Below the pieces are notes generated by a model. It worked only from the letters and a program-made list of their open reading frames with translations. It was not told the origin of the DNA and searched no databases. From assembly GCA_030390025.1 (NCBI GenBank), contig CM059431.1, positions 142,044,001 to 142,108,000 of the forward strand: a DNA stretch of 64,000 nt, in the 5' to 3' direction. Positions 7,711-64,000 of this stretch are shown piece by piece; position 1 is the stretch's first letter, and every line of letters starts with the position of its first letter. Both the position numbers and the translations under genes were made by a program. The stretch is from Squalus acanthias (taxonomy: Eukaryota).

Positions 7711-7780
7711 ATGGGGCGACCAGCTATACTGCTGATAAAAGAGATTTACTACCCAATTCTCGCAGCTTTCGGTGTCCCCG
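7711..7780 (+). CDS. GPR139-like: GPR139-like orphan GPCR copy 1, coding exon 1 (MGRPAILLIKEIYYPILAAFGVP)
   Basis: ATG at 7711, 70-nt exon ending CCG|GTGAGC donor (phase 1); same exon in copies 2 and 4; YYP..GVP is the TM1 start typical of GPR139/142-type receptors. Confidence 0.85.
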
Positions 7781-8202
7781 GTGAGCCATTGTAAACTGCT
7801 TGTTGTTAACCGGTGTTAACTGTGTCCCTGTTCATGTCTCATGTTGGATATGGTAACTTTTTTACAGATGTCAGCATGACACAGTGAACCGCCTGTCTGC
7901 ACTTTCCCAGTTCCCCTTAATATCATAACATTTCCGATAATACTATGCTCTTTCAAGCTCCAACACAAGGATTTTAGCGGATTTCCGTCCTGTCTTGTCC
8001 CGCCGTGCAGAGTGAGCGCTGCAGCAGCTCATTAAAATGTGTGGGTGGGTTTCCCAGGTTCTGGCTCCAATACTAATCCTGTTCTCACACTGCTCCGTGT
8101 GGATAATCGCACTGAATGGATTAAAATGCTCTCCACATGTATCGCCATATATATTTCAATCAGACACTGGAACATTATTTCTCTCCTCTCTCTTTCTTAC
8201 AG

Positions 8203-9122
8203 CGAAATTGGTGACAATGGTGATTCTCTCCCGAGGAAACTGCGGCCTTTCCAAGTGCATCTCTGTCTACATGGTGGCCATGGCAACAGCAGATCTACTG
8301 GTCATGATCTTTAATGTAATGGTGTATTATATTTTAAGTTATCACTTTCCGCTTTCATTCCTGTCCCACACTCCGGTGTGTAAGTCCAATCTATACATGA
8401 ATGCTGTCACCTTCGATTTGTCTGTTTGGTTCACCGTCTCCTTCACATTTGACCGATTTATAGTTATCTGCAGCCAGAAGTATAAAGTAAAATATTGCAA
8501 CGAGAGAACTGCGGCCCTGGTTATAACAGCGTTCATATTCCTGATCTTTTTAAAGGGTATTGCCATTTTGTTTGCATATGAATCTCAGCAAATAATTAAC
8601 AAGGTGCAGTGGGGGTGTCGGGTAAGTGTAGCTTTTCTTTCCTCACCTCCAGGTGAAGCGTATCTCTGGTTTCACACCATATGGCTCGTTTGGCTTCCCT
8701 TTACGTTAATGGCCTTGTTTAATTGTTTTACCGTCAGACGTATTTTAGTGGCCAGCAGAGCCCGCAGGGGACTCCGGGGTCACAGCAGTGAGAATCAGAG
8801 CGATCCAGAAATGGAGAACCGAAGAAAATCCATCATTTTGCTCTTTGCTATATCGCGCAGTTTTATATTGCTGTGGCTGACTACTGCCGTGAGTTTTGTA
8901 ATTACCAGAATGTCAAACGTCAATTATTACCCAGGTGACCGCACAGACCCAGCCTTTTTCGCCACTGAAACCGGAGCAATGCTGAAGCATTTGAGCTCCT
9001 GTCCGAACACGTGTATTTATGCAGCGACCCAGAGGAAGTTCAGAGAAAAGCTGAAGAAGGTGCTGAAATCTCCCTGGACACTGATTCTAAGATTGGTTAA
9101 ACATGAAAGAAAGCCGAGCTAG
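8203..9122 (+). CDS. GPR139-like: GPR139-like orphan class A GPCR copy 1, coding exon 2 (spliced protein 329 aa, frame intact)
   Basis: Polypyrimidine tract and TTACAG acceptor at 8201-8202; motifs YMVAMATADL (TM2), SVWFTVSFTFDRF (DRY-like), RRKSIILL (TM6), NTCIY and FRE helix 8; TAG at 9120-9122. Confidence 0.9.
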
Positions 9123-9495
9123 AGCTTCGGTTGGGACATTAGAATTCCGTTCTAGCTCGTGTTCCAGATTAGACTGGGGTTCTCTCTGCTAACCGCTACA
9201 TAAGGATTGTTGTAAAATCTCACAGGTACGCGACTATATTTGGTGTCTTTTTAGCATTTAACGCCAACAAGGACTGTTGGTTTCCGCAGTTCGTTGGCCG
9301 AGTGACTCATCCCAAACAAGTCATTCCCCCTTAAGTGTGAAAAATGTCAGTGATTTAGTCAAATTTAACAGTGGTATATAACAGTTGATCAATGAGTTTA
9401 ATATCTAATCCTGTGAGGACTGTAATCAATTCTATCCTATATTGACCGGATCAGTCACTAGTTTTAGGGAAAGATTTTGTCGTTTACAACTCCCG

Positions 9496-13450: not shown

Positions 13451-13489
13451 TTGCTAGATGTTGTGGAGAGGCTATCCCTTCAACTGGTT

Positions 13490-16990: not shown

Positions 16991-18900
16991 GATTGTACGA
17001 TCTTCCGTGTCATTTTTCGCAGTCAGTCGCAGTGTAGGGTGTAAATTTAACAAATGCTGCAGTAGGAAAGCGGAGATACCGATTCTTGGGAGCAGATATG
17101 GAATCTTGAAATAACTTTGGGAGATGTGGGCTCAGAGTGAAGAGCTCAGACTGCAGAAAAAGACACAAATTCACGTGAACCCTCCGCGAGGCCTTTCTCA
17201 CCAATTAGTACTAACAGTTAAAGAAGGGTCATTTCCTTTAAGAGAAATTTGAATTAATCAGAAAACTATAACAAAGTTTTTTATTATTGCTAGTGGTTCA
17301 ATTGAAGCGCATCACGCACTATAGCCAAGCATTAGTAAACGTAATAAATTAATAAAAAATCATTTAAAATTGGAATTGAGATTAAACATTTGGAGTTTAT
17401 CAGCAATTATCTGTGCGAAATGCCTCCTGTAGTTTTACCCCAACCTTGCATCTATTGCTGGAGCCGGATCCTTACACTTTGCTCAATTTTCAGAATCATG
17501 AAGCTCAGCCCAGTACCAGTCTCCCATAATGCACCAGTTCAGTTTGAGTCTCTGTCACCGGTGGACTACAACACCCAGAATGCAACAGCGTAGTAGAGCA
17601 CCTCAGTCCGTTTAACTGTCAATCTTGCAATGCAGCATAACCCCGCTCCTACTCCTATTAATCCAATTCCTCAGTAAGACGTTAAAGGAGTGAATGAAGG
17701 ATTCATCTTCTTCCTCAGCATATATATTTCAAGATAATAAAATCCAGCTTTCCAACATTGGGATCTCCAGGACGTGGGGAAATACTTGGATTCACAACAT
17801 TGGAGATTCCGTGCATTTGATGCTGTGCAGGGCCCCTTCAACACAACCCGACAAAATTCCTCTGTGTGTACTTTAATATAGTGCATATAATTGGGTTGCC
17901 AGCTTTTGATTTGTTAAAGTAGGTACAGGCACCGCAGATTATCCCATTAACAACTGTGAGGATGATTAGGATAATTCGACAATTTAACAAAATAACGTTA
18001 AATAATAGAGTTCCTTATATTGCCTCCTAAACTGCATATGCAATTCCAGGAGTATTCCACTTAAAGGTGTACATTTTGAGAATCTTCCCTTCGTTCAAGA
18101 TAATTTTCTTGCTTTCTTCGTTGTATATCTAAATTGTTAAACTCCTCAGATTGAAGTTCATCAGTTTCCCTTTGCCTGTGTTATGCAGCACATGTATTTT
18201 GCAGTTTGTTTAGAGAAGGTTATATTTTTCATGTGATAAACTTTCGATAAAATAGTTATCAATTTCAGAAGCAGATAAAAACGTTTGTGCCGAATGAACC
18301 TCCTAGTAATTCAGTAAATAACATATAGAATACAGTTATCCAGTGAGCTGAAATGTTCCGCCCGGCTTCCCGTCTAACACTTAACTTCACATTTGAGTAA
18401 TTTGTGCATTCGCCTCATAACATTAAAGCTGACATTAGATCAGCTGGAGGTTTCCTCTTTTCTAAAGATAGAAAACAGGATTTTCTATAATTTCTTCAAA
18501 ACTGGAATTGTGAATCCCTGGAATTTCTGGGACTGAGCCCTGTGAACTATACAGAGCAGACATTTCCATTTTATGATTAGGTTGCCAGAATTGTCCACAC
18601 AGTCTAAATGAGGATAATCCCAACATTTCTTGTGACAACAATAATAGATTTAATTGGAACTCTATCCTTTGAAATTCGAGGGGCTTTCTCGAACAAAGGG
18701 GAAAGCGGGAACTGGCAGAGTGCGGGAACCCGTGGGACTGGAATCTGGCAGAATGTGGGATACAGGTGAGCGGGGCCATGATGAAAAGGAGAGCGGGAAG
18801 AGTCGAACAAATCAACTGACGGAGACAGCTCCAATTTGCATGAATAAAATGTCAATCTTATTTTGTTTTCAGCTTTTAAACACTGATCGGTGAATTGGAT

Positions 18901-19636
18901 GGGCCAAAAATTGATCCCGCTGCGCGAGAGTACGCACTGCGTACTCTGGCGTATTCTCTCTCCAATTGCCGGTTTTCTGCATGCACTGCGCATGCACTGA
19001 AAACCGGCACTTGGTCTTTGGAAAAGGGGGCGGTTCCTCGGTGCACCGCGTGCGCGCTACCGGCTGCGCGCACGCTGTGCACTTAGTGCTTTGGACGCGC
19101 AGGTAAGGACGGAAGATTTTAGAAACGAAAAAAGGAGTAAGACCCACTTTTAACAAGGTAAGTAGTGAATTAAGTATTATTTTGATTTTTTTTAACAGGT
19201 ATATCTTTTTTAGAGACTTTAAAGACAGGTAAGTTTATTTTTATAACTTTTTAAAAGATTTTAAATTTTTTCAAAAATGTAATTTTTTATTTAAAATGGT
19301 TAATTTATTTAACTATACTTATTTTATTAACGTGATTTTTAAAAAAAATTAATTGAGGTTTAGCTGTTATTTTGGGGGTGTGTAAGATTCATAGCTTTCA
19401 CAGCACGTAAGTGAAACTTATGAATGGAAGATGGTGTGCTGCCATTGGCTCTAACTGAGTCACGTGATGCCACAGCTCGCACAAATTCACTACGCCGGTG
19501 GGATACGCAAACACTGCCCAGCTGATGTCTGGAACATCAAGTTCGTGCGAGCTGGATCTGAAAAAGCCAACGCGGAGTGAGAGATCGCGGCTGCTCCTTA
19601 CCCCCGCGGGAACAGAGCGAGATCAATTTCTGGGCC
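18901..19636. mobile_element. MITE family A copy (about 740 bp, Harbinger-like), inverted relative to the other three
   Basis: TIRs GGGCCAAAAATTGATC / GATCAATTTCTGGGCC; reverse complement of the copies at 40620, 45368 and 59177. Confidence 0.85.
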
Positions 19637-22885: not shown

Positions 22886-23640
22886 GGGCCGTATTTTCCG
22901 ATCGGAGGATTCCTGCGTACGGAGGCCTCCGATCTGGAAAAATGTACGAACTTACCTGAGGGCTCCCGAGGGGCCTATACTTCCGCTCCTGGGCCTCTCC
23001 ACAGTCGAAATGCGCAGGGCCCACTTAACCCATAGGCGCAGGCAGTTCGCAAGCGTCCCTGGGATCACGTGCGCCATGGGGAGCCAATAGGAGAAGGGAA
23101 TCTCCCTTCATACACTTGACAAATAGACCTGTCAAAAGTATGAATGAAGATCACCCCAAAAACATAGTGAAACTTTAAATAAATTAAAAAAACCATCACG
23201 TTTTTAAAATTAATTGAAATTACAATAAATTAAATATTTTAAACAACAATTTAATTACAAAAATAAGTAAAGTTTTTTACAGGCTAAAAATAAACTTACC
23301 TTTTTAAAAAATATATTTTAAAATCTAAATGAGTGAAGAAAATTTTTGTTTCTTACTTTTTTCCAACGCTTATGCTGGTAAAGGCAGGCCTTTCGCCTGC
23401 TTTTACCAGGCGTAAGATTTGTAAGGGTTTTCTGCGGGCGGAGGTGCTCCTGAAAGCGGAACTATCGGCCCGCAGACTCCCTTCTCCAGGGCAGGCGTCC
23501 GATCTGTCCAGAGCATTCTGGACAGATCGAAAATGCCGGTTTTCAGCGCATGCGCTTCGCATGCCTGAAAACGGCATTTCCGATGCCCCTTCGTGTGTGC
23601 ACAGCCCGTACACGCACGTAGGGTTCGGTATATACGGCCC
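22886..23640. mobile_element. MITE family B copy (755 bp, Harbinger-like)
   Basis: TIRs GGGCCGTATTTTCCGA / TCGGTATATACGGCCC; absent from the paralogous site near 63360. Confidence 0.85.
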
Positions 23641-24337
23641 GTGAGTCAGAATATCAATAATATTACTCATGATACTTTTATCGGCAGCACAAAACAAGAG
23701 CAGACTCCATCTTTGTGCTAAGTGAGAGACACCAGTCAGTGTACAATCGAGAATTTAAGTCTGTATCTGGGGCAAAATAGGTGAAAGTGCACATCGATGA
23801 GCCGAGTTACGAACTGTTTCCTCCATTCGAACACTGATCACGGGACAAGAGCCCGCTTTATTTGTCAATGAGGAATGGAGTCCGATAGAGAAACCCACGC
23901 CTGCAATATTCACACCAAACTTCCAGGATAGTTACCAATATTGGTGATCGCAAGAACTTTGATCGTTAAGGCACCAAATAAAACTTTATTGATGATTTTA
24001 AAGTGGCGCGCCCGATCCCAGTACCTGCAGTGTAAGGTGGATTCCTCTGTTACCCACATGTCCGACTCCGCTGCTGAACTTCATCATTGTTATCTTTGAT
24101 CCCTGAAGGTGAAATTTGCTAAAGTTGCAGGAATAGGTTATGTTTATTCAACGAAAGAAGCGTAGAAAAAGAAAGCAAAATCAGACATCAATGCATGCTG
24201 GAAAATGGAATAAATGTGTACACAAGAACTCACCCATTTTTTACATTACCGGAAAGAAGGATTGTAACGATTGAAAAGGAGTTGAAATTGAGCTTTACTT
24301 ACGAGGAAGATCTCGTTTGACTTGATTCTTTTCATCC

Positions 24338-25759: not shown

Positions 25760-26164
25760 TTTCTGTGAGAATGGATGAATTCTGCAGGAGATGAAAGACT
25801 CTGACTGGCGCAGGGCTGGAGCGATGGAAAGGATCCTATATTCATACTCACTTCAATCCTCTAAGGTGTCAATCAGGTTAAATCATAATTAGCATTAGTT
25901 ACAGTCATTTAACAAATCGACTCAGGTAAGTTCTTTTTCTTGTCTGATACGTCAGATTAAGAGAAATAGGTGAAATTATTATTGTAAAGTTAAAACATTC
26001 AAACATTGTTTACAAGTGGAAAGTCAAATCTTCCAGTACTGGCGCTGACTCTATTCCTACAGGCGTGATGAAGGTAGCTCACCTTGCAATATTCGTCCTG
26101 ACCCTGCCCATGATTCACCTAGTGCACCAACTCCTTCAGAACAGGCGGTGAAACAAATCCTTCA

Positions 26165-29100
26165 ATACCAGTGATGAGCACAGTCAGGCCGCACTAGATG
26201 TGGCCGTTTCCTCCGGTATAGTGGTAGCCTCCACTTACAGTAGAGGTAACCGTCTCCTCTGGTATAGTGGTACTCTACACTTACGCTAAAGAGGACCATG
26301 CTCCTGCTGTCGTTCTGGCAACGTACACTTACAGTAGAGTTCAACGTGGTCCAATGGTGATAGTGGTAGCACTGCACTGACACTAGTATTGACCGTGCTG
26401 TTCAAGTACTAATGCTAATCCTTCACTTACACTAGATGTGCATGTGCTCGACCTGCACAAGTGGTGCCCGTACACTTACACTAGGGATGACCGTTCTCCA
26501 CCGGTACTAGTAATATCCCTGCATTTGAACTAGTGCTGACCGTGCCCTTCCACTATTAGCGGTGCTTTGTAATTACACTAGAGGTGACCATTTTCCTCGT
26601 GTACTCATAGTATCCCTGAACTTACACAAGAGGTAACCTTGTCCCTCTGCTATTAGCGGTTCTCTGCAGTTGCACTAGTTATGACCGTGCTCCTCTTGTA
26701 CTAGTAGTACCACTAAACTTACACTGGAGTTGAGCGTATTCCTACAGGAAAAGTCGTATCGCTGCACTAACACTAGTGTTGACCGTGCACCTCCAGTATC
26801 AGTTGCACCCCTAACATTATAATAGAGCTGATTGTGCTCTTCCAATGATAGTACACTAGAACATAGGAACATAATAAATAGGACTGGGGTAGTCCATACC
26901 GCCCTTCGAGCCTGCCCTGCCATTCAATAAGATCCTCGCTGATATTCAACATCAACTCCACTTTGCCGCCCGATCCCCATATCCCTTGATTCCCTTAGAG
27001 TCCAAAATCTATCTATCTCCGTCTTGAATATACTCAACGGCTAAGCATTCACTGCCCTCTGGGGTAGACAATTGCAAAGATTCAAAATCCTCTGAGTGAA
27101 GACATTTCTCCTCATGTCGGACTTGTATGGCCGACTCCTTATCCTGAGGCTATCCCCATATGTCTAGACTCTCCAGCCAGGGGAAACAGGCTCTCAGAAT
27201 CTACCCGATCAATCCCCCTAAGAATATTGTATGTTTCAATGAGATCACCTCTCATTCTTCTAAACTATAGAGTGCATAGGACCAATCAACTCAATCTCTC
27301 CTCTTTGGACAACTGTCTCATCCCAGGTATCAATCTAGTGAACCTTTGTTGCACATCCTCTAATGCCAGTATATCCTTTCTTAGAAAAGGAGATCACAAC
27401 TGTACACAGTGCTCAAGGTGTGGTCTCCCACCAAAGGCCTATACAAATACAGCAAGGTTTCCTTAATCTTGTACTCCAACCCCCTTGGAATAAAGACCAA
27501 CATGCCATTTGCCTTCTTAATTGCTTGTTCTGCCTGCATGCTAACTCTCTCTGTTTCCTGTATGAGGACATTTTAATCTCTCTGAACACCAACATTTATT
27601 TGTTTCTCACCATTTCAAAATATTAATATTTTCTGTTGTTCTTACCAAAGTGAATAACCTTCCATTTCCCCACATTTTACACAATCAGCCATGTTCTTGC
27701 CCACTCACTATACCTGGCTATATCCCTTTGCAGACTATGTGTGTACTCCTCACAGCTTACTTTCCAACCTAGTTCTGTATCGCCAGAAACTTGGATACAT
27801 TACATCCATCTAAGCGATTAATATAGATTGCAAATAGCTGAGGCCCCAGCAATGATCCTTAGTAGCCTGCCTAGCTGAAAATGTCCCGTTTACTCCTGTT
27901 GTCTGTTATCTTTCCTTTATCAATCCTCTGCTCAGTCTAATATATTATCCCAACCCCATGATCCCGTATCTAGTGTAACAACTTTTCTAATGGCACCTTA
28001 TCGAATGCCTTTTGAAAATCGAAATATACTTCATCCACTGGTTCCCCTTTATCAATCCTGTTAGTTATATCCTCAAATAACTAATGCATTTGCACATCAC
28101 GATTTCCCTTTCATAAAAGCATGTTGACTCTGCCTCATCATGTTATAATTTGCTAAGTGCCTTGTTACCACATCCTTAATAATGGATTCCAGCATTTTCC
28201 CGACGATTTATGTCAGGCTAACTGAGCAGTCGTTCCCTGTTTTTTCTTTCCATCCTTTATTGAATAGCGGTGTTACATTTCCTACCTCTTGTTACATCCT
28301 AGTTTAAGTGTGGTGTTACCCCTACACTTATACTGGATGTGACTGTGCTCCTCCACTAAGAGTGGTAACTTATACAAGATGTCAGCGTGTTCCTCCTGCA
28401 ATACTTGTAACTCTACATTTAAATAGATGTGACCGTGCTCCACTGGCACTAGTGGTAATCCTACACTTAACCTAGATGTATCCTTCGTTATTAGTGTACC
28501 CTACACTTGCACCAGTGTTCACCGTGCTCCTCAGGTACTCGTGGAACACTACACTTACACTACAGTTGACCGTGCTCCTCAGGTACTAGTGGAACCCTAC
28601 ACTTACACTACAGTTGACCGTGCTCCTCAGGTACTAGTGGAACCCTACACTTGCACTACCGTTGACCGTGCTCCTCAGGTACTAGTGGAACCGTACACTT
28701 ACACTAAATTTGACCGTGCTCCTCAAGTACTAGTGGAACCCTACACTTACACTACAGTTGACCGTGCTCCTCAAGTACTAGTGGAACCCTACACTTACAC
28801 TACAGTTGACCGTGCTCCTCAGGTACTAGTGGAACCCTACACTTACACTACAGTTGACCGTGCTCCTCAGGTACTATTGGATACCTACACGTACACTACA
28901 GTTGACCGTGCTCCTCAGGTACTAGTGGAACCCTACACTTACACTACAGTTGTCCGTACCCCTCAGGTACTAGTGGAACCCTACACTTACACTACAGTTG
29001 ACCGTGCTCCTCGGGTACTCGTGGAACCCTAGACTTACACTACAGTTCACCGTGCTCCTCAGGTACTCGTGGAACCCTACACTTACACTACAGTTGACCG

Positions 29101-29500
29101 TGCTCCTCAGGTACTCGTGGAACCCTACACTTACACTAAAGTTGACCGTGCTCCTCAGGTACTCGTGGAACCCTACACTTACACTACATTTGACCGTGCT
29201 CCTCAGGTACTCCTGGAACGCTACACTTACACGAGAGCTGACCGTGCTGCTATGGTACTAGTGCTACCCTACACTTATGCAAGAGATGACCAGACACGTG
29301 TGGTGCTGGTGGTTAGAAAAACTTCCACTCGATATTCGCGTGCTCCTATAGTCATAGTGGTGTCACTACACTGACATTAATGTTAACCGTGCACCTTCCC
29401 TAATAGTCGTAAGCCTAAAATTATAAAAGAGCCGATCGTGCACCTCCGGTACTAGTGGTACACCTACACTAACACTGGATGTGACAGTGCTCCTCCGTTT
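26165..29500 (+). repeat. 48-bp satellite array (homogeneous core about 28495-29250, 15-16 units; degenerate flanks), interrupted by a CR1
   Basis: Unit CCCTACACTTACACTACAGTTGACCGTGCTCCTCAGGTACTAGTGGAA; period 48 (CAGTTGACC at 28563 and 28611). Confidence 0.95.
26858..28290 (-). mobile_element. 5'-truncated CR1 LINE inserted in the 48-bp satellite
   Basis: GAACATAG tail repeats at about 26858; 3' UTR and RT homologous to 11070-12500. Confidence 0.85.
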
Positions 29501-37800: not shown

Positions 37801-39429
37801 CCTGATTTTCTGACATGTTAGTAAAAAAAATCGCGCAAAAATTAAAGAGCAATTGTCCTCACGGGATGGAAGAAACGAAGCTTTTATTTGCTCACATATT
37901 CCGGTTGATTTTAATTTTGTGGTTTAACATAATTCTAACATTTCCTTCTCTCTTTATTCCAGTTAGCCTGGTGGCGATTTCCATCCTGTGCCGAGGAAAT
38001 TGCCGTCTCTCCAAATGTGTCACTCGCTACCTGGTGGCGATGGCAGTAGCGGATTTAATAGTAGTGATTATTGAAGTCCTGATGTACCAGATTACTAGAA
38101 TTTATTGGAAAATCAAATTCCTGAAACAGGCTCCATTTTGTCTTGTCCATTATGTCCTGTGTCAGGTTGCTTTGGATTGTTCTGTTTGGCTCACCGTCGC
38201 TTTCACTTTCGATCGCTTTGTAGCCATTTGCTGCCCGAAGTTTAAGTTGAAATATTGCACCCCGAAAATTGCGGCGTTAGTTATTTTCCCAATATGTCTG
38301 GGGTTCTGTTTAAAGAACATCCCCTTTTATTTCCTGTATATGGAATCAAATTATTATATTCGCGGGAGTTTGAGGTGTTCGGGAAACAATCCCTACCCAT
38401 GTCGGAAACGTTTGAGTGGTTTTACTGGTTAGACCGTCTGTTGAAGCCGCTGCTTCCATCTGTCTCATTTTGCTCCCTAATGCTCTGACAGTCAGCCAGA
38501 TTATTGCGTCCAGTGGAGTCCGCAGGGGGCTCAGGGCCCGGAGTAATGGCGAGAAGCAGAGAGATCCAGAGATGGAAAATCGGAGACAATCCATCATTCT
38601 GCTCTTCACCCTGTCGGGCAGTTTTATTCTGTGATGGATGACAACTACTCTGGTCTTCATTCTCAGCCGATGTCTTTACACAGACCTGGAAACGTCTATT
38701 CGTCTTATTCAGGCAAAAAATGTCGGGACAGTAATTCAGCTTTTCAGCTGCTGCGCAAACACCTTCATTTATGGAGTGACCCAGAAGAAATTCAGAGAGC
38801 AGTTGAGGAGCGCGGTGGTGTATCCTGTTACTCTCGTTGCTAAATTAGTTTGATAATGTGTACCGCACAGATCAATGCGTCAGTTAATGTTCTAGTTTTG
38901 TAGCAGTGCCGACATGACCAGAAACCTCTCTGAATAAGACTACAATCCACCAACTGCGGTCTAACCTGGTGAACTTAACCCTTCTCGAGGTGAGAGTGCC
39001 CCTCCTCCCTACTCCTCCATTGTTTCCATTGACTGCTTCAGGGCACTTGCCTGTTTTATAATTCTATTTACATTTAGGCCTGATTTACAAGTGATCCTTG
39101 TTTGGTTTCTGTAGAATATTATCATATCAACACATTGCCCTTATGTGGAGGTATAATAAGATTTCGTCATACATCCATACCATTGATACAAGTTCGAGGA
39201 CTAGGAATCACTGCAACATCTTATTAATGCATTTCATTAAATCATGTCAATGTTATAATAAAACACTAATCCTTAAATGCAGGGTATATGAGATAGAGGT
39301 ACTTATAAAAACATTATAACTCCCGTAGAAAGGGCTCCTTCAGGAGATCGCAAGAGAGTCGCCTTGACTACTAACGCTGGCCTCAGCAAGAATGGGCTCA
39401 AAGTCCCCAAAGAGCTCCAGTGTGTTGTC

Positions 39430-45367: not shown

Positions 45368-46110
45368 GGCCCAGAAATTAAAGAGGGAGCCTTCGTGCGG
45401 GGGTAAGGCTTCCCCGCGTAATCTCACTGCGCGCCGGCTTTTTCATTCCGAGCTCGCACGAACATGATTTTCTAGACAGCAGCTGGGCAGTGCTTGCGTA
45501 TCCCACAGGCGCAGTTAATTTGTGCGAGCTGTGGGATCACGTGATTCAGTTAGAGCCAATGGCAGCACTCCATCTTTCATGTCATAGTTTTCACATCAAG
45601 TGCTGTGAAAGCTATGAATCTATACCCCCCCAAAAGAACAGCTAAACCTCAATTAATTTTTTAAAAAACCATCACATTAATAAAATAAGTATAGTTAAAT
45701 AAATTAACCACTTTAAACAAAAAATTAAATTTTTGAAAAAATTTAAAATCTTTTAAAAAGTTATAAAAATAAACTTACCTTTCTTTAAAGTCTCTAAAAA
45801 AGATATACCTGTTGAAAAAAATTCAAAATAATTCTTAATTAACTACTTACCTTGTTAAAAGAGGGTCTTACGCCTCCTTTCTTTATGCGCAAAATCTTCC
45901 ATGATTACCTGCGCGTTCAAAGCACTAAGTGCACAGCGTGCGCGCAGCATGTAACGCGCACGCAGTTCACTTAGGAACCGCCACCTTTTGAAATCGCCAA
46001 GTGCCGGTTTTCAGCGCATGCGCAGTGCATGCAGAAAACCGGAAATTGGAGACTGAATACCCGAGAGTACACAGTGCGTACTCTCGCGTAGAGGCACTAA
46101 TTTTTGGGCC
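45368..46110. mobile_element. MITE family A copy
   Basis: TIRs GGCCCAGAAATTA / TAATTTTTGGGCC; 743 bp. Confidence 0.85.
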
Positions 46111-46279
46111 ATTAATTCTCTCAGTGAGCGATGTATCTGCACCCTGCTACAATCGTGAGAAGGCGATGTGTAATCAATCAAATCATCTAATATCAACATA
46201 TACAATAGAAATCAAAGGCATGAACAATTTAACCATTGCATTACCGTGTCAAATTAAGTCCCGTATGGCTGTGATTCCC

Positions 46280-46780
46280 CGCCCCCTGTTTCTGATTAAA
46301 TAATTGTGTTCCCTTGAGATTTTCTATTTCTAATTAAACAGTTACTGTGTTTCCCTAACATTCCTTGCCCTCTATTTGTTATCAAACAGTAACCGTGTTC
46401 TCCTTTCACCTACTTCTATACACATAGCTACAAAGTTATGTGAACCCCGATTTGTAATTAAACCTTTACTCCCAAATTACCCTGAACTCGATTCCGAATT
46501 AAACAGTTAATGTGTTCCCCTAATTCCCCGTGCTCCTGTTTCTAATTACATGGTTACTGTGTTCCACTAAAGTCACTTGCGTCCTATTCCTAACTAAACT
46601 GCTACTCTTTTCCCCTACAGTTCTTTTTATTCCATTTATAACTAAACAATTGTTCTAATCCCCTAAATTCTCCAGTCCTGTATTTCTATTTAAACAGATG
46701 GTGTATTCCTTTCAATTCACCTGGCGTGTATTTGCAATTAAACAGTTACAGTCTTACCGTAAATTCCCCGATGTTCCCCA
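46280..46780. repeat. Degenerate minisatellite, about 47-bp period, about 10 units
   Basis: Recurrent TAATTAAACAGTTA.TGTGTTCCC core at about 46330, 46496, 46542, 46590, 46637, 46685 and 46734. Confidence 0.7.
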
Positions 46781-51560: not shown

Positions 51561-52179
51561 TTGTTTGTAAAAAGAGAATCCGGTTGTTTTCCGACGGGAG
51601 ACTCGGTAGTTGTGGAGGAGCGCTCCGTGATAGCGGGACTGCTTTATTTTTCAGATGTCTCTGATCTTAGTTCTGTTCCGGTGCCCCCTCTGACCTGCGG
51701 TCACAGATATCTGACAGCGGGCACTGGGCTCTCCTGGGCGACTTCTTCCTGAAGCGAGTCTCCAGCTGCCTGCTTGCCCTGCTGCTCCTCATCATTTGCC
51801 TCTTCCTGCTCTCCATAGACATAGTTGCAGGGGGAGGTCCAAATGAATCACTCCGCGCCGGTGGTGATGTAGAAACCGTTCACGAGCTGGAGATAGTAAA
51901 AGGCCAAAAACATGGACTCTTCAGAAAGAAAGTTTCCCCAAGTACACAATCCAAATAAACTGGATCCAATAGGAATCGCTCCAGACAACCGCCACCGAAC
52001 AACAAGCAGCATCTCTTTCGTGGAGGTTTGTGAGTCACAATACGGCCGGTAGAGGGGGAAATTACAATAGTTTTAACTCACATTTTCATCCAGCGGGCAG
52101 AGCGGGTGCTGGCAATTTTGGACCGTCGGAAAATCAGTGCCAGACATTTCCAAAACATGTTCTGCACCGGTCACCTCTT

Positions 52180-54560
52180 GTGTAAGTGTCGTGTATCACC
52201 AGCATTGGAGGAGCGCAGTCACACCTGGTGGAAGTGCAGTGGTTGCACTAGTACTGGAGGAGTGCGGTCACTTCTAGTGTAAAGGTACTGGTGTGAGTAA
52301 TACCGGAGTAGCACGGTCACTTCTCATGCAAGTGTAGGCGCCACTAGTAACGGAGGAGAACGCTCACATTTAGTGTAAGTGTAGGTGCCACTAGTAACGG
52401 AGGAGAACGCTCACATTTAATGTAGGGAGAGGGATGGAGTCGGTGGCTAGGGAACGCGGTATGTAGTGGGGACCGAAGACAATGGCTTCGGTGTTCCCAA
52501 CCTTGAGTTGGAGGAAAGTTCTGCTGATCCAATTCTTGATGTCGGATAAGCAGCATGACAATTTAGCGGTAGTGGAGGTGTCGGGAGATGTGGTAGTGAG
52601 GTACACCTGGGTGTCGTCAGCGTACATGTGCCCCATCCGAAATCACATCATCAGTTTTCACACATACACCACTCTGGACAGCTGCATTCTCTGTCGTCGA
52701 ATTACATTATGCAGACCACACTTGCGTCTTCCCACACTCGGAGGTCGAACTCCAAACTATCTCTAAACTATCACACTGCTTGTCCGACATCCATTACTGG
52801 ATGAGCAGAAATTTCCTCGAACTAAATATATGGAAGACCGAAGCCATTTTCTTTGGTCCTCACCTCGAAAACCGTTCCCTAGCACCAGACTCCATCCCTC
52901 ACCCTGGCAAATGTCTGAGGCTGATCCAGATGGTTTGTAAACCTGTTATCACATTTGACCCCGAGATGAGCTTCTGACCACATAACTGCACCATCACTAA
53001 GACCGCCTTTTTCCACCTCTGGAACATCCCCGACCAATCCCCTGTCTCAGCTCATCTCCGGCTGAAACCATGGCTCTCTTACCTCTAGACTTATCTATCC
53101 CAACGCACTCCTAGCCGGTCTTCCACGTTCTACCTTCTGTTAACTTGAGGTCATCAAAAACGCTGCTGCCCGATTTTGGTTATCTAAACTAACATTTTCC
53201 TATGTATCTTGTTGTCAATTATTGTTTGATAACCCTCCTGTGAAGCGCGTTGGGAAGTTTTACTACGTTAAAGGCACTATAAAATATCAAGTTATTGTAA
53301 TTGTTAAGTGTAAGGCTACCACGAGTACCGTAGATTCAGCATCATCGCTAGTGTAAGTGTTGGGAACCACGAGTACAGGACGAGCTTGATAACCACTAGT
53401 GTAAGTGTAGGCGTAACACTCGTACCGGAGGAGCAGGTAAACACTAGTGTATGTGTAGGGTTCCACAGGTACTGAATGGGCACGGTCACTACTAGTGTAA
53501 ATGTGGCAGTATCACTAGTACCGGAGGAGCACTATTATCTCTAGTGTAATTGTAGGGGTACCGCTAATTCAAAAGTAATGTGCTCGCGCCTAATTTATTT
53601 GTAGCGTTACTACTTGTACCGCGGAGCAGGGTAACCTCTAATCTTAATTTAGGTTACCACTAATTTAGGATGTGCACGGTCACCACTTTATTTAGTGTAA
53701 GGGTACCACTAGTGTAGGAGCAGCGCGGTCAATTCTATTGTAAGTGTAGGGGTACCACTAGTGTAGGAGAAGCACCGTCACCACTAGTGTAGGAGGAGCA
53801 CGGTCACCGCTAGTGCAATTTTATTGAAACTACTATTACCGGTGCAGCAGGCGCCAATCTAGTGTAATTGCAGGGTTTCCGCTAGTGTAATTGTAGAGTA
53901 CCACTAGTACTAGATGAGCAATATCAGCTCTATTGTTAGTGTACTGATACCACTAGCACTAGAGGAGCATGTGTACTGTAAGTTTAAGTGTAGACATTCC
54001 ACTAGTGAATGCTCACCTCTAGTATAAGTGTACATACAAAAATACCAGAGGAGCAAAATAATATATAGTGTCGGTTTCGGGGACCTGAGAAGCACGGTCA
54101 CATAGAGTGCATGTGCCGGTTTTTTAGCAGCACGTTCACATCAAGTGTATGTTTTGGGGACCACAAGTACGGGAGGAGCACGGTTACATCTGGTGTAAGT
54201 GTAGGGGTACCACTAGTACCGAAGGAGCACTGTCAAACTTAATGTCAATATAGGGGTACCATAGGTACCCGAGGAGCACGGTCACCGATAGTGCAAGTGT
54301 AAGGTACCAATTATCCAGGAGGAGCAAGGTCACATCTAGTGTCAGTGTAGGGGTAGCACTGAACAGGAGGGGCACACTCACATCTAGTGTATGAAGGCGG
54401 TTTCCACTAGTACACGAGGAGCACTGTCAATAGCAGTGTTAGTGTACAGCTGCCACTATTAGCATAGCAGCCCGTTCAATTCTAGTTTAGGCATGGAACT
54501 AGCACGGACACATCTAGCATTAGTGTATGGGGCCATTAGTGCAGAAGGAGCACTGTCTCC
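52180..54560 (-). repeat. Degenerate 48-bp satellite array (reverse orientation) upstream of GPCR copy 4, interrupted by L2 pieces
   Basis: Repeating CCACTAGTACCGGAGGAGCACGGTCACATCTAGTGTAAGTGTAGGGGTA, the reverse complement of the 26165-29500 unit. Confidence 0.9.
52425..53300. mobile_element. Back-to-back L2 fragments (about 52425-52630 -, about 52640-53300 +)
   Basis: HMYADDTQVY..LQLKVGNTE on minus; WMSRNFLELNIWKTE and L2 tail on plus. Confidence 0.75.
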
Positions 54561-55815: not shown

Positions 55816-56211
55816 TTCACTGCCTGTTCTGCAGGAGTTGCTGCACTAGAAGTGAATCAAGGTCAGGTCATGACGGTTATTGCCTGGGGAGCTGCATTCA
55901 CCAGGACTGTAGGAATAGGGCCAGCACCAGTACTGGGAGATTGCAATTCCGACTCGTAAACAATATTTTAATTGTGTATTTTTTAAAACTGTCCAACAAT
56001 AATTTCACTTATTTCTCTTAATCTGACGTATCAGGTAAGAAAAACAACTTGCTGAGTCGATTTGTTAAGTGACTGTAAATAATGCTAATTATGTTTTAAC
56101 CTGATTGACTCCCTGGAGGATTGATGTGTGGATAAATATAGGTTTTCCTCCATTGCCGCAGCCTTGCGCCAGTCAGAGTTCTTTACCTCCGACAGATTTC
56201 ATCTATTCTAA
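55816..56211 (+). promoter_or_regulatory. Displaced upstream/promoter region of GPCR copy 4
   Basis: Collinear with 7300-7705 and with 25765-26160(rc); separated from its ATG by a CR1. Confidence 0.7.
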
Positions 56212-59200
56212 CAGAGCAATAGTTATTGGGGACTCAATAGTCAGAGGGACAGATAGGAGGTTCTGTGGCAGCAAAAGAGACTCACGGATGGTATGTTGCC
56301 TCCCGGGTGCCAGGGTCCGTGACGTCTCGGACCGTGTTTTCAGAATCCTCAAAGGGGAAGGGGAACAATCACAAGTCGTGGTACACATCGGTACCAACGA
56401 CATAGGTAGGAGAAGGGACGGGGATTTAAAACAGGAATTTAGGGAGCTAGGTTGGAAGCTGAGAGCCAGTACAAACCATGTTGTAATTTCTGGTTTGTTG
56501 CCGGTGCCACGTGCTAGCGAGTTGAGGAACAGGGAGAGAGTGCAGATAAACACGTGGCTGCAGGGATGGTGTAGGGGGGAGGGTTTCAGTTATGTGGATA
56601 ATTGGAGCACATTCTGGGGAAGGTGGGACCTGTACAAACAGGACGGTTTGCACCTGAACCAGAGGGGCACCAATATCCTGGGAGGGAAATTTGCTACGGC
56701 TCTTCGGGGGGGTTTAAACTAATTTGTCAGGGGGATGGGAAAAAGGGCTGTAGTCCACGAGCCAGTGGTGAGTGTAGGGAGGTACTGAGGAGGGTATCAA
56801 GGTCGCAGGAATGTACCGGCAGACAGGAAGATGGCTTGAAGTGTGTCTACTTCAACGCAAGGAGCATCCGGAATAAGGTAGGAGAACTTGGAGCGTGGAT
56901 TGGTACTTGGGACTACGATGTGGTGGCCATTACGGAGACATGGTTAGAACAGGGACAGGAATGGTTGTTGGAAGTTCCGGGGTATAGATGTTTCAGTAAG
57001 AGTAGGGAAGTTGGTAAGAAAGGTGGAGGAGTAGCATTGTTAATCAAGGATAGTTTAACAGCGGCAGAAAGGCAGTTCGAGGGGGATCTGCCGTCTGAGG
57101 TAATATGGGCTGAAGTTAGAAATAGGAAAGGAGCGGTCACGTTGTTAGGAGTTTTCTACAGGCCCCCAAATAGTAATAAAGATGTGGAGGAAGAAATTGC
57201 AAAGCAGATTATGAATAGGTGTGGAGGTCACAGAGTAGTTGTCATGGGTGACTTCAACTTTCCAAATATTGATTGGAACCTTTATAGGTCAAACAGTTCG
57301 GATGGGATAGTTTTTGCACAGTGTGTGCAGGAGGGTTTCCTGACACAATATGTGGATAGGCCGACAAGAGGTGGGGCCACGTTGGATTTGGTACTGGGTA
57401 ATGAACCGGGCCAAGTGTTAGATTTGTATGTGGGAGAGCACTTTGGAGATAGTGACCACAATTCGGTAACTTTCACTATTGCAATGGAGAGGGATAGGGC
57501 CATACGGCAGGGCAGGGTTTATAATTGGGGGAGGGGTAATTATGATGCGATTAGGCAAGAATTAGGGAGTATAAGATGGGAACAGAAACTATCAGGGAAA
57601 GGCACAAACGAAAAGTGGAGCTTTTTCATGGAGCAATTACTGCGTGTCCTTGATAGGTATGTCCCTGTCAGGCAGGGAGGAAATGGCCGAGTGAGAGAAC
57701 CATGGTTCACAAAAGAGGTTGAATGTCTAGTCAAGAGGAAAAAGGAAGCGTATGTAACGATGAGAAAACAAGGTTCAGTTGGGTCGATTGAGGGGTACAA
57801 GGTAGCAAGGAATGAGCTAAAAAAAGAGCTTAGGAGAGCTAGGAGGGGGCATGAGAAGTCCTTGGCGGGTCGGATCAAGAAAAACCCCAAGGCTTTATAC
57901 TCTTATGTGAGAAATAAAAGAATGACCAGGGTGAGGGTAGGGCCGGTCAAGGACAGTAGTGGGAACTTGTGCATGGCGTCAGAAGAGATAGGAGAGGTGA
58001 TGAATGAATACTTTTCGTCAGTGTTCACCGAGGAGAGGGGCCATGTTCTTGAGGATGAGAGTGTGATAAAGGTGGATAGGCTGGAGGTGGCAGATGTTCT
58101 GAGGGAAGATGTTTTAGCAATTTTGAAGAACCTGAGGGTCGATAAGTCCCCTGGGCCAGATGGGATATATCCTAGGATTCTTTGGGAGGCAAGGGAGGGG
58201 ATTGCAGAGCCTCTGGCTTTGATCTTTGGGTCCTCACTGTCCATGGGGATGGTGCCAGAGGACTGGAGAGTGGCGAATGTTGTTCCTCTCTTCAAGAGAG
58301 GAAATAGGAATGACCCTGGTAATTATAGGCCGGTTAGTCTTACTTCGGTGCTTGGTAAGATAATGGAAAAGGTCCTGAGGGATAGGATTTATGACCATTT
58401 GGAAAGGGGCAACTTAATCAGGGATAGTCAACACGGATTCGTGAAGGGTAAGTCTTGCCTAACAAATTTGATTGAATTCTTTGAGGAGGTAACTAAGTGT
58501 GTAGATGAAGGTAGAGCAGTTGATGTCGTATACATGGATTTTAGTAAGGCGTTTGATAAGATTTCCCATGGTCGTCTCATGAAGAAAGTAAGGAGTTGTG
58601 GGATAGAGGGAAATTTGGCCGATTGGATAAGTAACTGGCTATCTCATAGAAGGCAGAGGGTGGTGGTGGATGGAACATTTTCGGACTGGAGACCAGTTAC
58701 CAGCGGTGTGCCACAGGGGTCGGTGCTGGGTCCTCTGCTGTTTGTGATTTTTATCAATGACTTGGAGGAGGGGACTGAAGGGTGGATCAGTAAATTTGCT
58801 GATGACACCAAGATTGGTGGAGTAGTGGAAGAGGTGGAGGGCAGTTGTAGGCTGCAAAGAGACATTGATAGGATGCAGAGCTGGGCCGAAAAATGGCAAA
58901 TGGAATTTAACCCTGATAAGTGCGAGGTGATTCATTTTGGTAGGGCAAATTTGAATAAGGATTACAGGGTCAACGGCAGGGTTCTGAGGAACGTGGAGGA
59001 GCAGAGGGATCTGGGGGTTCATATCCACAGATCTCTGAAGGTTGCCACTCAAGTGGATAGAGCAGTAAAGAAGGCCTATGGTGTGTTGGCGTTTATTAAC
59101 AGAGGGTTTGAGTTTAAGAACCGTGAGGTTATGCTGCAACTGTACAGGACCTTGGTGAGACCACATTTGGAATATTGGCCCAGAAATTGATCTCGCTCTG

Positions 59201-60450
59201 TTCCCGCGGGGGTAAGCCTTCCCCGCGATGTCTCACCTCGCTTATGCTTTTTCTGATCCAGCTCGCACGAAATTGATGTTCCAGACATCAGCTGTGCTGG
59301 GCTTGCGTATCCCAGCGGCGTAGTTAATTCGTGCGAGCTGTGGGATCACGTGACTCAGTTAGAGCCAATGGCAGCACACCATCTTCCATTCATAAGTCTC
59401 ACAGCATGGCTGTGAGACTTATGAATCTTACACCCCCCCAAAATAACAGCTAAACCTCAATTAAATTTAAAAAAAAACCCATCACATTAATAAAATAAGT
59501 ATAGTTAATTAAATTAACCATTTTAAATAAAAAATTAAATTTTTGAAAAAATTTAAAATCTTTTAAAAAGTTATAAAAATAAACTTACCTGTCTTTAAAG
59601 TCTATAAAAAAGATATACCTGTAAAAAAAATTCAAAAAAATACTTAATTCACTACTTACCTTCTTAAAAGCGGGTCTTACTCCTCCTTTTTACATTTCCA
59701 AAATCTTCCCTACTTACCTGCGCGTCCAAAGCATGAAGTGCACAGCGTGCGCGCAGCCTGTAGCGCGCACGCGATGCAGCCAGGCCCCGCCCCCTTTTCG
59801 GAAGAGCAATTGCCGGTTTTCAGCGCATGCGCAGGGCATGCAGAAAACCGGCAATTGGAGTGGGAATACGCGAGAGTATGCAGTGCGTACTCTCGCGTCC
59901 CGGGATCAATTTTCGGCCCATTGTGTGCAGTTCTGGTCACCTCACTTTCGGAAGGACGTGGAAGCATTGGAAAGAGTGCAAAGGAGATTTACCAGGATGC
60001 TGCCTGGTTTGGGGGGGAGGTCTTATGAGGAAAGATTGAGGGAGTTGGGGCTTTTCTCTTTAGAGCGGAGGAGGATGAGAGGCGACTTAATAGAGGTTTA
60101 TAAGATGATGAGGGGGATAGATAGAGTGGATGTTCAGAGACTATTTCCTCGGGTAGAGGCAGCTGTTACAAGGGGGCATAACTATAATGTGCATGGGGGG
60201 AGATATAGAAGGGATGTCCGAGGTAGATTCTTTACTCAGAGAGTGGTTGGGGTGTGGAATGGACTGCCTGCTGTGATAGTGGAGTCGGACACTTTAGGAA
60301 CTTTCAAGCGGTTATTGGATAAGCACATGGAGCACACCAGAGTGATAGGGAGTGGGATAGCTTGATCTTGGTCTCGGACAATGCTCGGCACAACATCGAG
60401 GGCCGAAGGGCCTGTACTGTGCTGTACTGTTCTATGTATCTATGTATCTA
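56212..60450 (+). mobile_element. Young CR1 LINE: 5'-truncated ORF1 (SGNH esterase) plus complete ORF2 (EN-RT) split only by a MITE
   Basis: IGDSIVR..CLPGA..HIGTND..DGLHL esterase; 862-codon EN-RT frame to 59190 continuing at 59922-60365; (TATCTATG)n tail. Confidence 0.95.
59177..59919. mobile_element. MITE family A copy with exact 3-bp TSD (ATT)
   Basis: TIRs GGCCCAGAAATTGATC / GATCAATTTTCGGCCC; ATT at 59174-59176 and 59920-59922; removal restores GAATATTGTGTGCAG (EYCVQ). Confidence 0.92.
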
Positions 60451-60884
60451 GAATGTGGCAACCAGCTATTCTGCTGATCAAAGAGATTTACTACCCGATT
60501 CTCGCAGCCGTCGGTGTCCCCGGTGAGCCATTGTAACCTGTTTGTTGTTAATCGGGGTTAACTGTATCCATGTACATACAGCCTGCTGGATAAGGTGATG
60601 TCTCTCCCAGATGTCTGCATTACATAGCTGGTAGTGACTGGAACCAACTCATGAACCACGTGTCTGCACTTTCCGCAGTCCCCTTAATCCGATAACCTTA
60701 CTGAAGTTACAATGTTCTTTGAAACTCCAGCACGAGGATTTTAGTGGATTTCCGGAGCGTCTTGTCCCCACGTGCAGAGTGAGCGCTGCAGCAGCTCATT
60801 ACAATGTGTGGGTCGTTTTCCCAGGTAATGGTCATAATACTAATCATTTTCTCAGACTGCTCCGTTTTGATAACCACTGTGATT

Positions 60885-61740
60885 GGGCCGGATTTTCTGA
60901 CCCCCAGAGGTGCGTACGAGGTGTGTAGCGGCCGCGCAATTGCCGGGTTCAGGCATGCGAAGCGCATGCGCTAAAGCCCGGCACTTGCGATCTGTCAAGA
61001 ATTCTCTGGACAGATCAGCCGCCTGCCCGGGAAAAGTGCCTCCGCGGGCAGGGAGTTGCGCTTTCTGCACAACTTCCGCCCGCTGAAAACCTTTCAAATA
61101 TTACACCTGATAAAAGCAGGCGAGAGATCTGCTTTTACCAGCATAAGTGTTTAAAAAAATAAAAGGATTTTTTTTTCACTCATATTTAATTTAAAAATAC
61201 TTTCAAAAACGGTAAGTTTATTTTTAGCCACGTTTAAAATATTTAATTTAAAGTAATTTTAACTAATTTTGAATACGTGATTAAAAATATTTATTTAATG
61301 TTTAACTGTGTTTTTAAATGCGATCCCCATTCATACTTTGGACAGATCTGTGGTTAGAGATCTGTCAAAATTGTGAAAGAAAGACTTGCATTTATATAGC
61401 GCATTTAACGACCACCGGACCTCTCAAAGTGCTTTGCAGCCAGTACTTTTTGGAGTGAAGTCACTGTTGTAATGTGGGAAACACAGCAGCCAATTTCCGC
61501 ACAGCAAGGTCCAACAAACAGCAATGTAATAATGAACAGATAATCTGTTTGTTATGTTGATTGAGGGATAAATATTGGCCAGGACACCGGGGGTAACTCC
61601 CCTGGTCTTCTTCGAAATATTGCCATGTGATCGTTGACGTCCACCTGAGAGTGCAGACGGAGCTCCCTCAGTACAGCACTGGAGTGTCAGCCTAGATTTT
61701 TGTGTGCACGCAGGAAGCCTGCGATCGGAAATTCAGGGCC
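60885..61740. mobile_element. MITE family B copy in the intron of copy 4, with nested SINE
   Basis: TIRs GGGCCGGATTTTCTGA / TCGGAAATTCAGGGCC; reverse-complement similarity to 22886-23640; absent from the introns of copies 1 and 2. Confidence 0.8.
61376..61700 (-). mobile_element. Deu-domain SINE nested in MITE B
   Basis: TTGCATTTATATAGCGC tail; TTGAGGGATAAATATTGGCCAGGACACCGGGG and CTCCCTCAGTACAGCACT core. Confidence 0.8.
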
Positions 61741-64000
61741 AATAAATCTCCATTGATATTTCAAGCAGACACTTCAAAATTATTTCTCTCCTTTCTCTTT
61801 CTTACAGCGAACTTGATGGCAATTATTATTCTCTCCCGAGGAAACTGCGGCCTTTCCAAGTGTATCTCTGTCTACATGGTGTCCATGGCAACAGCAGATC
61901 GACTGGTCATGATCATCAATGCAGTAGTGTCTCACACGCTGGTGTGTAAATTCATTTTATACATGACTGGTGTCACCCTCGACTTGTCAGTTTGGTTCAC
62001 CGTCTCATTTACATTTGACCGATTTGTAGTTCTCTGCTGCCAGAAGTTTAAGACAAAATATTGCACCAAGAGAACTGCGGCCGCGGCTATAACAACGTTT
62101 TCGGTCCTGACCTTATTTAAAGACATCCCCGTATTGTTTGGATTTGAACATCAGCAAATAATTAACAAGGTGCAGTGGGGCTGCCGTCCAAGTGTGGCTT
62201 TTTCTTCCTCACCTCCAGGTGTTGCCTACCTCTGGTTTCACAGCGCCTGGGTTGTTTGGCTTCCTTTCAGTTTAATTGTCTTGTTTAATTCTTTAACAGT
62301 CCGTCGTATATTAGTGGCCAGCAGAGCCCGCAGGGAACTCCGGGGTCACAGGACTGAGAATCAGTGTGATCCGGAGATGCAGAACCGAAGGAAATCTATC
62401 ATTTGACTCTTCACTATATCGGGCAGTTTTATATTGTTGTGGCTGACAAATGCCGTGAGTTTGTTAACTACCAGACTGGGAAACACCATTATTACCGAGG
62501 CGACCGCACAGACCCTGGATATATCGCCACAGAAACCGGAGCCATGCTGAAGTTTTTGAATGGCTTTCAAAACCTGTATATTTATGCAGCGACCCAGAGG
62601 AAATTCAGAGAAGAGCTGAAGACTGTGGTGAAATATCCCTGGACAATCACTCTGAGATTGGTTAGAAAATGAGATTTAAAGTAATCAAGTCAAACAAAAG
62701 CTCCCTCGTAACTAAAGCTCAATTTCAACTCCTTTTCCACCGTAGAACGTCCTTCTTTCTGGAAATGTGAAAAATGGGAGAGTTCATGTGTGAACATTTA
62801 TTCGATTTTTAGCATGCGTTTGATGTCTGCTTTACTTTAGCTTTTCTCGCTTCTTTCGCTGAGTAAACATAACCTATTCCGGCAAATTTAGCACATTTCA
62901 ATTTCAGGGATCAAACAGAACAATGATGAGGTGCAGCAGTGGAGTCGGACATGTGTGTAACAGAGGAATCCACCTCACACTGCAGATACTTGGATCGGGC
63001 GCGCCACTTTAAAATCATCAATAAAGTTTCATTGGGTGCCGAAAACTATCAAAGGTCCTGCGATCGCCGATATTGGTTAATTTCCTGGAAGTTTGGTGTG
63101 AATATTGCAGGCGCGAGTCTCTCTATCGGACTCCATTCCTCATTGACAAACGGAGCCGGCTCTTGTCACGTGATCAGTGTTCCAATGGAGGAAACAGTCG
63201 GAACCCGGCTCAGAGATGTGACCTTTCACCTCTTTTGTCCCAGATACTGATTTAAAATCTCGATTGCGCGCTGACTGGTGTCTCTCACTCATAACTGAGG
63301 TGGAGTCTGCTCTTGTTTTGTGCTGTCGATAGAAGTATCATCAGTAATATTATTGAAATTCTGTCTCAATCAGTCTCCCAAACAAAATAGTAAAGGAATG
63401 TAAACATGAACGATTATTTATAAAATTATTAACTATTACTTTTCATGCAATTTATCTGTAAAAAAAAAGCTGCTAGAAATTCAGCTGAAATAAAACTGAT
63501 ATTAATTATTCTGTGTTTGGCTGAACATATGCGGACGGTCAGAAAGAATCTTTGGTAATTACCGTCTTAATATGCGGTTACAATTTGTCCCAAATAATCA
63601 TTAAAATTCCAGCAACTTTGAATCACTTGCAAATTGTTCATCCCTGATCTCACCAATCTGCGAGGAAACGACAAGGAATGGAAGAATTTCTCAATTGAAA
63701 AACCTGAAGGATGTGGATGGAGAGTGAGCGATAGGGATCCAAAAATTAATTCATCGAAAGTGTGTTTTCAGGAGGATAAATCCATGCAAACAAAGAGAGA
63801 AATTTGTGTTTATATATATGGGCGTAGACCACAAGAATAAACAAGTGATGATGAATCTTTACAAATTGCTGGTGAGGCTACCATTAGAACAGCAGGTACA
63901 GCTTCACCCCCTCGTTGTGGAAAGACCATTAAATCCACTGAGTGCGGGCAGTGTAGATACACCAGGATGGTGCCATGGATCAGAACTATACTGATGATGA

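Follow-up and report, generated by a model that had tools for sequence, protein, structure and literature searches.

A large GPR139-like receptor family of cartilaginous fishes, possibly an unrecognized chemosensory repertoire, and its mostly dead cluster in Squalus acanthias

The stretch of Squalus acanthias DNA analyzed in this work, hereafter the window, comprises 64,000 nucleotides (contig CM059431.1 of assembly GCA_030390025.1, positions 142,044,001 to 142,108,000 of the forward strand) and carries four loci that encode class A G protein-coupled receptors (GPCRs) related to the orphan receptor GPR139. The cluster is a real feature, and most of it is dead. It belongs to a birth-and-death multigene family with many paralogs, species-specific gains and independent pseudogenes, which stands in RefSeq under a wrong name, hidden because annotation pipelines name its members GPR139. 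Given that the ligand pocket of these receptors is unusually varied, these genes may represent chemical sensors that have so far been overlooked; we assign a probability of roughly one half to a repertoire devoted to the chemosensation of peptides or amino-acid-like compounds.

The explanation that we favor starts from an ancestral orphan GPCR of jawed vertebrates, a member of the GPR139/GPR142 superfamily, which according to the tree and the database searches remained a single gene in amphibians and sturgeon but gave rise to a large family in cartilaginous fishes. In the paralogs the residues lining the pocket diversified, and a common promoter core and the scaffold for class A signalling were preserved; from this combination we infer a repertoire in which different members would bind different ligands and would be active in one class of cells. 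The most likely use would be the sensing of external peptides or amino-acid-like compounds in the nose, the taste buds, the skin or sensory cells of the gut. The window would represent an old cluster of mixed subfamilies, most of its members dead, and the spread probably occurred by duplication of a unit formed by satellite, promoter and gene. If the family is indeed chemoreceptive, the view that sharks smell sensitively with few receptor types would be overturned; sensory or immune, it would be in either case a new receptor radiation in jawed vertebrates. Expanded and ligand-diversified GPCR repertoires are of a known kind; the present radiation, and the fact that it arose from a single-copy orphan, appear to be undescribed. 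A literature search found no description of the family, most subscription journals being outside its reach, and the available part of PMC13113109 contains nothing on it; for the terms 'GPR210' and 'GPR139-like', Rinne et al. 2019 was the sole relevant paper found.

A multigene family and its single-copy relatives

The original prediction had proposed a lineage-expanded family subject to birth and death, and this is borne out by the tree, by the independent pseudogenes and by the number of copies, which is far from small: a search with exon 2 of copy 1, the only copy in the window with an open frame, had 3732 candidates, of which 2048 clusters (90% level) were related at E ≤ 1e-10. The best 120 of these clusters all come from sharks or a sawfish and cover 11 species, with at least 33 from Pristiophorus, at least 29 from Heterodontus, at least 25 from Heptranchias, at least 11 and at least 6 from two catsharks, and at least 8 from the whale shark; these per-species counts are lower bounds from one branch alone and may include isoforms. 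For comparison, the olfactory receptor (OR) repertoire of cartilaginous fishes is held to be the smallest among vertebrates, with a mean of 43.8 complete genes and a range of 20-62 (PMC10869828, available text), and a 'relative paucity' of GPCRs has been reported for these animals despite their large olfactory organs (PMC8455134, available text). When representatives at the 50% level were searched, 99 were found at E ≤ 1e-30; 20 of them were checked by name, of which 19 are chondrichthyan and one is unnamed. Named members include a skate, three further rays, the bamboo shark and Callorhinchus, and most of the 1928 remaining clusters are presumably chondrichthyan as well. Subfamilies at about 45% identity persist across sharks, rays and chimaera. 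An orthogroup labelled GPR142 in the whale-shark supplements was considered as this expansion and rejected, because it holds 70 proteins in 35 taxa. A metagenome scan returned 10 pattern matches, none of which was confirmed.

The phylogeny was inferred from 81 chosen proteins, namely the 4 copies of the window, 17 near and 35 distant relatives and 25 others, none of them a true GPR139 or GPR142. The 56 family rows, several of which were not checked by name, formed one chondrichthyan clade (support 98/90), whose sister is a gene of amphibians and sturgeon (support 100/99). This sister gene is represented by 21 clusters with 21 different species names; a salamander protein used as query retrieved 25 matches, 20 of them amphibian, one a sturgeon cluster, and four distant shark or skate proteins. 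The salamander orphan XP_069092602.1 (Pleurodeles) aligns to copy 1 with 119 bits and 32% identity, and shares with the family the short N-terminus, the end of transmembrane helix (TM) 3 and a signature in intracellular loop 3 and TM6. In contrast to the family, the amphibian/sturgeon gene has one cluster per species and an invariant pocket, with K6.51 and N7.38 (class A numbering). The gene is a conserved and unnamed orphan receptor that Xenopus also has, and through it the ancestral ligand could be approached with reasonable ease. Wherever the rows (P0219, P0277-P0296) cover these positions, it carries S at 1.50 and N at 2.50 instead of the usual N and D.

A very short N-terminus had been noticed in the window copies, and among the 120 nearest relatives 86 do have 24 residues ahead of position 1.50. 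This trait is ancestral and no hallmark of chemoreceptors, since it is also present in the single-copy sister gene of amphibians.

A second orphan clade was found with the coelacanth protein XP_005988539.1 and spans fishes, amphibians and reptiles. It belongs to the same superfamily and suffers the same misnaming, and was used as a control; unlike the expanded family, it includes a single orthologue per shark (3 species among the best 120 of 145 rows), and in the tree the clade, its shark members included, falls outside the expansion. Forcing the two single-copy clades together was rejected (p = 0.011 in the approximately unbiased test, for a group named after the tree had been seen). Members of this clade in one shark and one frog are annotated as TMEM183A isoforms (P0316, P0414), and a conserved linkage to TMEM183A is suggested. 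An orphan near GPR139/142 with three subtypes has been named 'GPR210' in coelacanth, gar and other fishes (Rinne et al. 2019, PMC6504862); it has no human orthologue, and the available text of that paper does not include sharks. Three GPR210-like lineages appear here, as many as the subtypes of that paper; our single-copy clades are probably GPR210-type orphans, and the amphibian/sturgeon gene is probably one of the three subtypes.

The original prediction held that the window copies are not GPR139 orthologues, and the tree, the bit scores and the residue at 6.51 agree with it on this point. Duplication of true GPR139 or GPR142, sensing L-Trp and L-Phe, would be in line with the names of most records and with the solved structures, among which (PDB 7vug and 9m42 for human GPR139/GPR142) human GPR139 is the best match both of copy 1 and of the family profile, the latter at 93 bits, the next structure reaching 71; the end of TM3 is similar and W6.48 is shared. 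However, copy 1 scores 28 bits against human GPR139 and 119 against the salamander orphan, and GPR139 and GPR142 are single-copy. The aligned GPR139 chain lacks the Cys at 3.25, and the paralogs have it together with a Cys in extracellular loop (ECL) 2. Activation of GPR139 requires F109 (3x33), H187 (5x43), W241 (6x48) and N271 (7x38) (PMC5430874), as well as a positive charge at 6x51 (PMC8807744), as stated in the available text of these papers. We carried these sites over through alignments to the structure chain and to the family profile. Lys or Arg at 6.51 occurs in none of 120 near paralogs, in 5 of 57 distant ones and in none of the four window copies, as against 21/21 amphibian/sturgeon proteins and 89/89 proteins of the second clade, which have Arg. 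Copy 1 shows A, H, W and A at 3.33, 5.43, 6.48 and 7.38; His at 5.43 is found in 71/120 near paralogs, and few positions in the family vary as much as 3.33 and 7.38, F3.33 and N7.38 not being kept. An origin from duplicated true GPR139/GPR142 is thus extremely unlikely, and an aromatic amino acid as ligand is not favored because the binding residues of GPR139 have been lost. On these comparisons the nearest bony-vertebrate relative is the unnamed single-copy orphan and not GPR139/142.

The characterised members of the superfamily bind neuropeptides or aromatic amino acids, which would suit a set of internal neuro-endocrine or reproductive receptors for diversified shark peptides. We regard this as very unlikely, given that receptors for endogenous peptides are usually stable and one-to-one, as in the two single-copy clades, a behavior that the rapid turnover of the expanded family does not fit.

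Pocket diversity, expression and possible use

The variability of the pocket was measured as entropy in near paralogs (n=120), distant paralogs (n=64; P0121-P0179 and five others), the amphibian/sturgeon clade, and the second clade (n=89, the first 89 of the best 120 rows). In near paralogs the pocket positions average 1.52 bits and the remaining helix positions 1.00 bits (p=0.0012), and in distant paralogs 2.63 and 1.56 bits. The single-copy relatives show the reverse, with 0.14 against 0.53 bits in the amphibian/sturgeon clade and 0.65 against 0.99 bits in the second clade, so that the ratio of pocket to other variability is 1.5-1.7 in the shark paralogs and 0.3-0.65 in their single-copy relatives. 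Overall helix identity is alike in near paralogs (0.66) and in the second clade (0.67); the two sets differ by 0.87 bits in the pocket and by 0.01 bits elsewhere. At the eight pocket sites known from GPR139, 33 sawshark proteins display 30 different strings, as against 2 in 21 amphibian/sturgeon proteins. The scaffold is conserved in the near set: R3.50 in 120/120, C3.25 in 119/120, the ECL2 Cys in 117/120, W6.48 in 119/120, N7.49 in 118/119 and Y7.53 in 119/119. The family keeps the class A x.50 residues and the disulfide, except for T at 6.50 and T or P at 7.50. As far as sequences can tell, this pocket pattern is that of a repertoire for many ligands.

Expression was approached by comparing copy 1, at 80% likeness, with three probable RNA runs and one DNA run from one organism. 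The probable RNA runs gave 16, 12 and 10 contigs, which stem from paralogs, since none reaches 95% identity to copy 1. One RNA contig joins both exons over the predicted intron, and no such joint appears in the DNA run; this is a weak sign, from one paralog contig, that some members of the family are spliced. One contig of the RNA runs spans intron sequence, and these runs may therefore contain DNA or pre-mRNA. Parts of copy 1 left uncovered carry no weight, the summed contig depth of the DNA run was not taken as copy number, and a search of sequencing runs, which listed no RNA run and whose best runs had 0.32 of the words, counts neither way. The deepest contigs of both the RNA and the DNA runs, which have loose ends near 8730-8840, belong to a subfamily other than that of copies 1, 2 and 4.

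Several families with known or proposed sensory roles resemble this one. Vertebrate OR, TAAR, V1R, V2R, T1R and T2R genes are likewise clustered paralogs with many pseudogenes, a compact coding region and a variable pocket, but their ancestry is different, and the present family has PF00001 as its only domain and an intron within the coding region. The MRGPR and FPR receptors also combine clustered paralogs, many pseudogenes and a variable pocket with a different ancestry. A closer parallel in descent is offered by the nematode srw receptors (PF10324), which expanded by birth and death out of the same superfamily of peptide receptors. FMRFamide/myosuppressin-type receptors, which bind peptides with aromatic ends, form the sister group of GPR139/142 in protostomes (PMC8557429, available text); srw arose from receptors of this type, and its turnover led to the proposal that it senses environmental peptides, its ligands being speculative in the available text of the paper (PMC2576165). 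The srw expansion is nonetheless separate, and copy 1 has no PF10324 match; in the look-alike clusters of the Atlas, PF10324 is found in 17-87% of members. A more far-reaching proposal would make these receptors an additional vertebrate chemoreceptor family, restricted to cartilaginous fishes, outnumbering their known OR, TAAR, V1R and V2R genes combined, and descended from the same stock as srw, with each cell expressing one member or a few through the common promoter core; we put it forward as tentative and, taken whole, doubtful.

Several observations speak against a chemosensory repertoire. The 23 pocket positions, among 197 helix positions, are our own selection by class A numbering, eight of them coming from the GPR139 papers. 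The entropies ignore the relatedness among sequences, some of the database models may be isoforms or decaying genes, and pocket entropy is no test of positive selection. In the window three of the four copies are dead and the fourth is doubtful, and a canonical O/E (Olf/EBF) site was present in none of the four upstream regions. The spliced contig is a single one, of depth 3.4, from a paralog, possibly from another species, and from an unrecorded tissue. In the available text of the corresponding papers, the catshark nose is dominated by V2Rs (PMC10116579), and a catshark library of brain plus olfactory tissue has no GPCR among its top 50 genes, V2Rs being missed too (PMC11979771).

Moreover, the diversity of the pocket fits immune or barrier receptors equally well. 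Such a repertoire would be placed on leukocytes, skin cells or nociceptors and would recognize microbial or host peptides in the manner of MRGPRs or formyl-peptide receptors. The same pocket diversity and turnover would be expected of it, and family contigs are present in all three probable RNA runs, of unrecorded tissue. In addition, MAS1 and related receptors are absent from cartilaginous fishes (PMC8455134, available text), so another family could fill the MRGPR-like role. Ancestry argues in the opposite direction, since the profile scores place the family with the neural and endocrine group of GPR139 and peptide receptors and not with chemoattractant receptors. An immune or barrier role is in our opinion possible, though unlikely, and the chemosensory repertoire continues to be the reading that we prefer.

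The cluster in the window

Using copy 1 as the tblastn query, exactly four loci were found in the LINE-rich (long interspersed nuclear element) DNA of the window (Table 1). Each locus consists of a short exon 1 of 3n+1 bases, followed in phase 1 by a single long exon 2, so that the search and the exon mapping agree with the four two-exon class A paralogs recognized at first. Copy 2 is inverted relative to the other three. PF00001 was above the cut-off in the three copies scanned.

Table 1. Receptor copies and associated features in the window (positions in the 64,000-nucleotide stretch)
Feature	Position	Strand	Description
Copy 1	exon 1 7711-7780, exon 2 8203-9122	+	open frame, 329 amino acids, class A seven-transmembrane receptor
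Copy 1 intron	7781-8202	+	GT..AG, phase 1
Copy 2, pseudogene	exon 1 25759-25690, exon 2 25242-24338	-	two stops and two frameshifts
Copy 3, pseudogene	exon 1 35875-35929, exon 2 37963-38853	+	distant subfamily, broken donor
Copy 4, pseudogene	exon 1 60453-60522, exon 2 61808-62672	+	deletion, stop, frameshift
Promoter core, copy 1	7554-7583	+	30 bases
Promoter core, copy 2	25887-25916	-	29/30 bases as in copy 1
Promoter core, copy 3	35509-35538	+	26/30 bases as in copy 1
Promoter core, copy 4	56061-56090	+	27/30 bases as in copy 1
48-base satellite arrays upstream of copy 2	26192-26842, 28313-29497	-	in gene orientation
Two 26-base satellite arrays directly upstream of copy 3	32817-35426	.	opposed, with their junction at about 33934
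48-base satellite arrays upstream of copy 4	52168-52424, 53305-54557	+	in gene orientation
LINE-containing insert between copy 4 promoter and ATG	56216-60450	+	4.2 kb

Three copies had been described as inactivated by different lesions, and this holds for copies 2, 3 and 4, no two of which share a lesion; the inactivations were therefore independent. In copy 2 the stops are at 25090 and 24753 and the frameshifts near 24820 (+1) and 24447 (-1). Copy 3 has GG in place of the donor GT, frameshifts near 38379 and 38459 and a stop at 38632. In copy 4 a deletion of 13 codons (39 bases) at TM2/ECL1 is accompanied by a stop at 62404 and a frameshift near 62488, and its intron carries an insert of about 860 bases. 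Exon 1 of copy 3 rests on the alignment to a catshark protein and on the promoter core, and it scored 1.7 bits with an exon-1 profile made from only 4 sequences. Copy 3 is 44-46% identical to copy 1 and 70% identical to that catshark protein, which has several near-identical paralogs.

Copy 1 may also be a dead gene despite its open frame, because K stands at position 1.50, which is N in 109 of 110 relatives and K in none of them. Two further changes are A at 4.60, where 103/120 relatives have P, and R at a TM6 position that is G in 105/120. In total it departs from its relatives at 10 of 144 conserved columns, which is an ordinary number, the median being 9, and 54/120 relatives have as many departures. 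The structure predicted from its exon 2 is a normal seven-helix bundle (predicted local distance difference test, 86) and matches class A structures with a TM-score of about 0.7; Foldseek ranks GPR139 10th for this model, a ranking that does not discriminate.

Over 306 codons, copies 1, 2 and 4 differ from one another by a synonymous distance (dS) of 0.29-0.31, and the ratio of nonsynonymous to synonymous distances (dN/dS) is 0.44-0.55, with bootstrap intervals below 1, as expected from past purifying selection that was diluted by the time spent as pseudogenes. In the tree each window copy pairs with a protein of another species and not with another window copy (84/66, 98/71, 100/100 and 100/93), with full support for two of the four pairs. 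Because of these distances and of the cross-species pairing of all copies, the cluster is best described, at the sequence level, as an old array of mixed subfamilies; a recent tandem burst was considered and is ruled out by the same two results. The distance between the introns of copies 1, 2 and 4 (0.16-0.23) is lower than the synonymous distance, which hints at constraint on the intron or at gene conversion.

A 30-base core lies about 60 bases ahead of a TATA-like box in all four copies; the best unrelated site for it in the window matches 20/30 bases, and it has been kept even at copy 3, whose protein is only about 45% identical. A homeodomain site was present in 2/4 upstream regions, with a background of 123/319 bins.

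Satellites are found upstream of copies 2, 3 and 4, and copy 1 has a short satellite remnant upstream. This arrangement suits a mostly passive amplification, in which satellite-flanked units were copied by unequal recombination, a few of them share one function and the others drift and die. Three dead copies out of four, a fairly high pairwise dN/dS and an intron distance no larger than dS point the same way. Drift, however, would not push the variation of the pocket above that of other helix sites and yet spare the activation residues, nor does it fit the maintenance of subfamilies at about 45% identity in sharks, rays and chimaera or of the promoter core between distant subfamilies. We consider a mostly passive origin quite unlikely, and retain a ligand repertoire as the favored explanation.

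The opposed 26-base arrays upstream of copy 3 form a long inverted structure, and their unit has a core in common with the 48-base arrays of copies 2 and 4. The insert between the promoter and the ATG of copy 4 contains an open stretch of 862 codons at 56602-59187, which from its motifs we take to encode an endonuclease and a reverse transcriptase, preceded by another of 205 codons; as both are still open, the LINE insertion seems to be fairly young. A dispersed non-LINE repeat with an AT-rich unit of 19 bases occurs at about 18600-19300, 23330-23750, 45700-46300 and 59500-59950.

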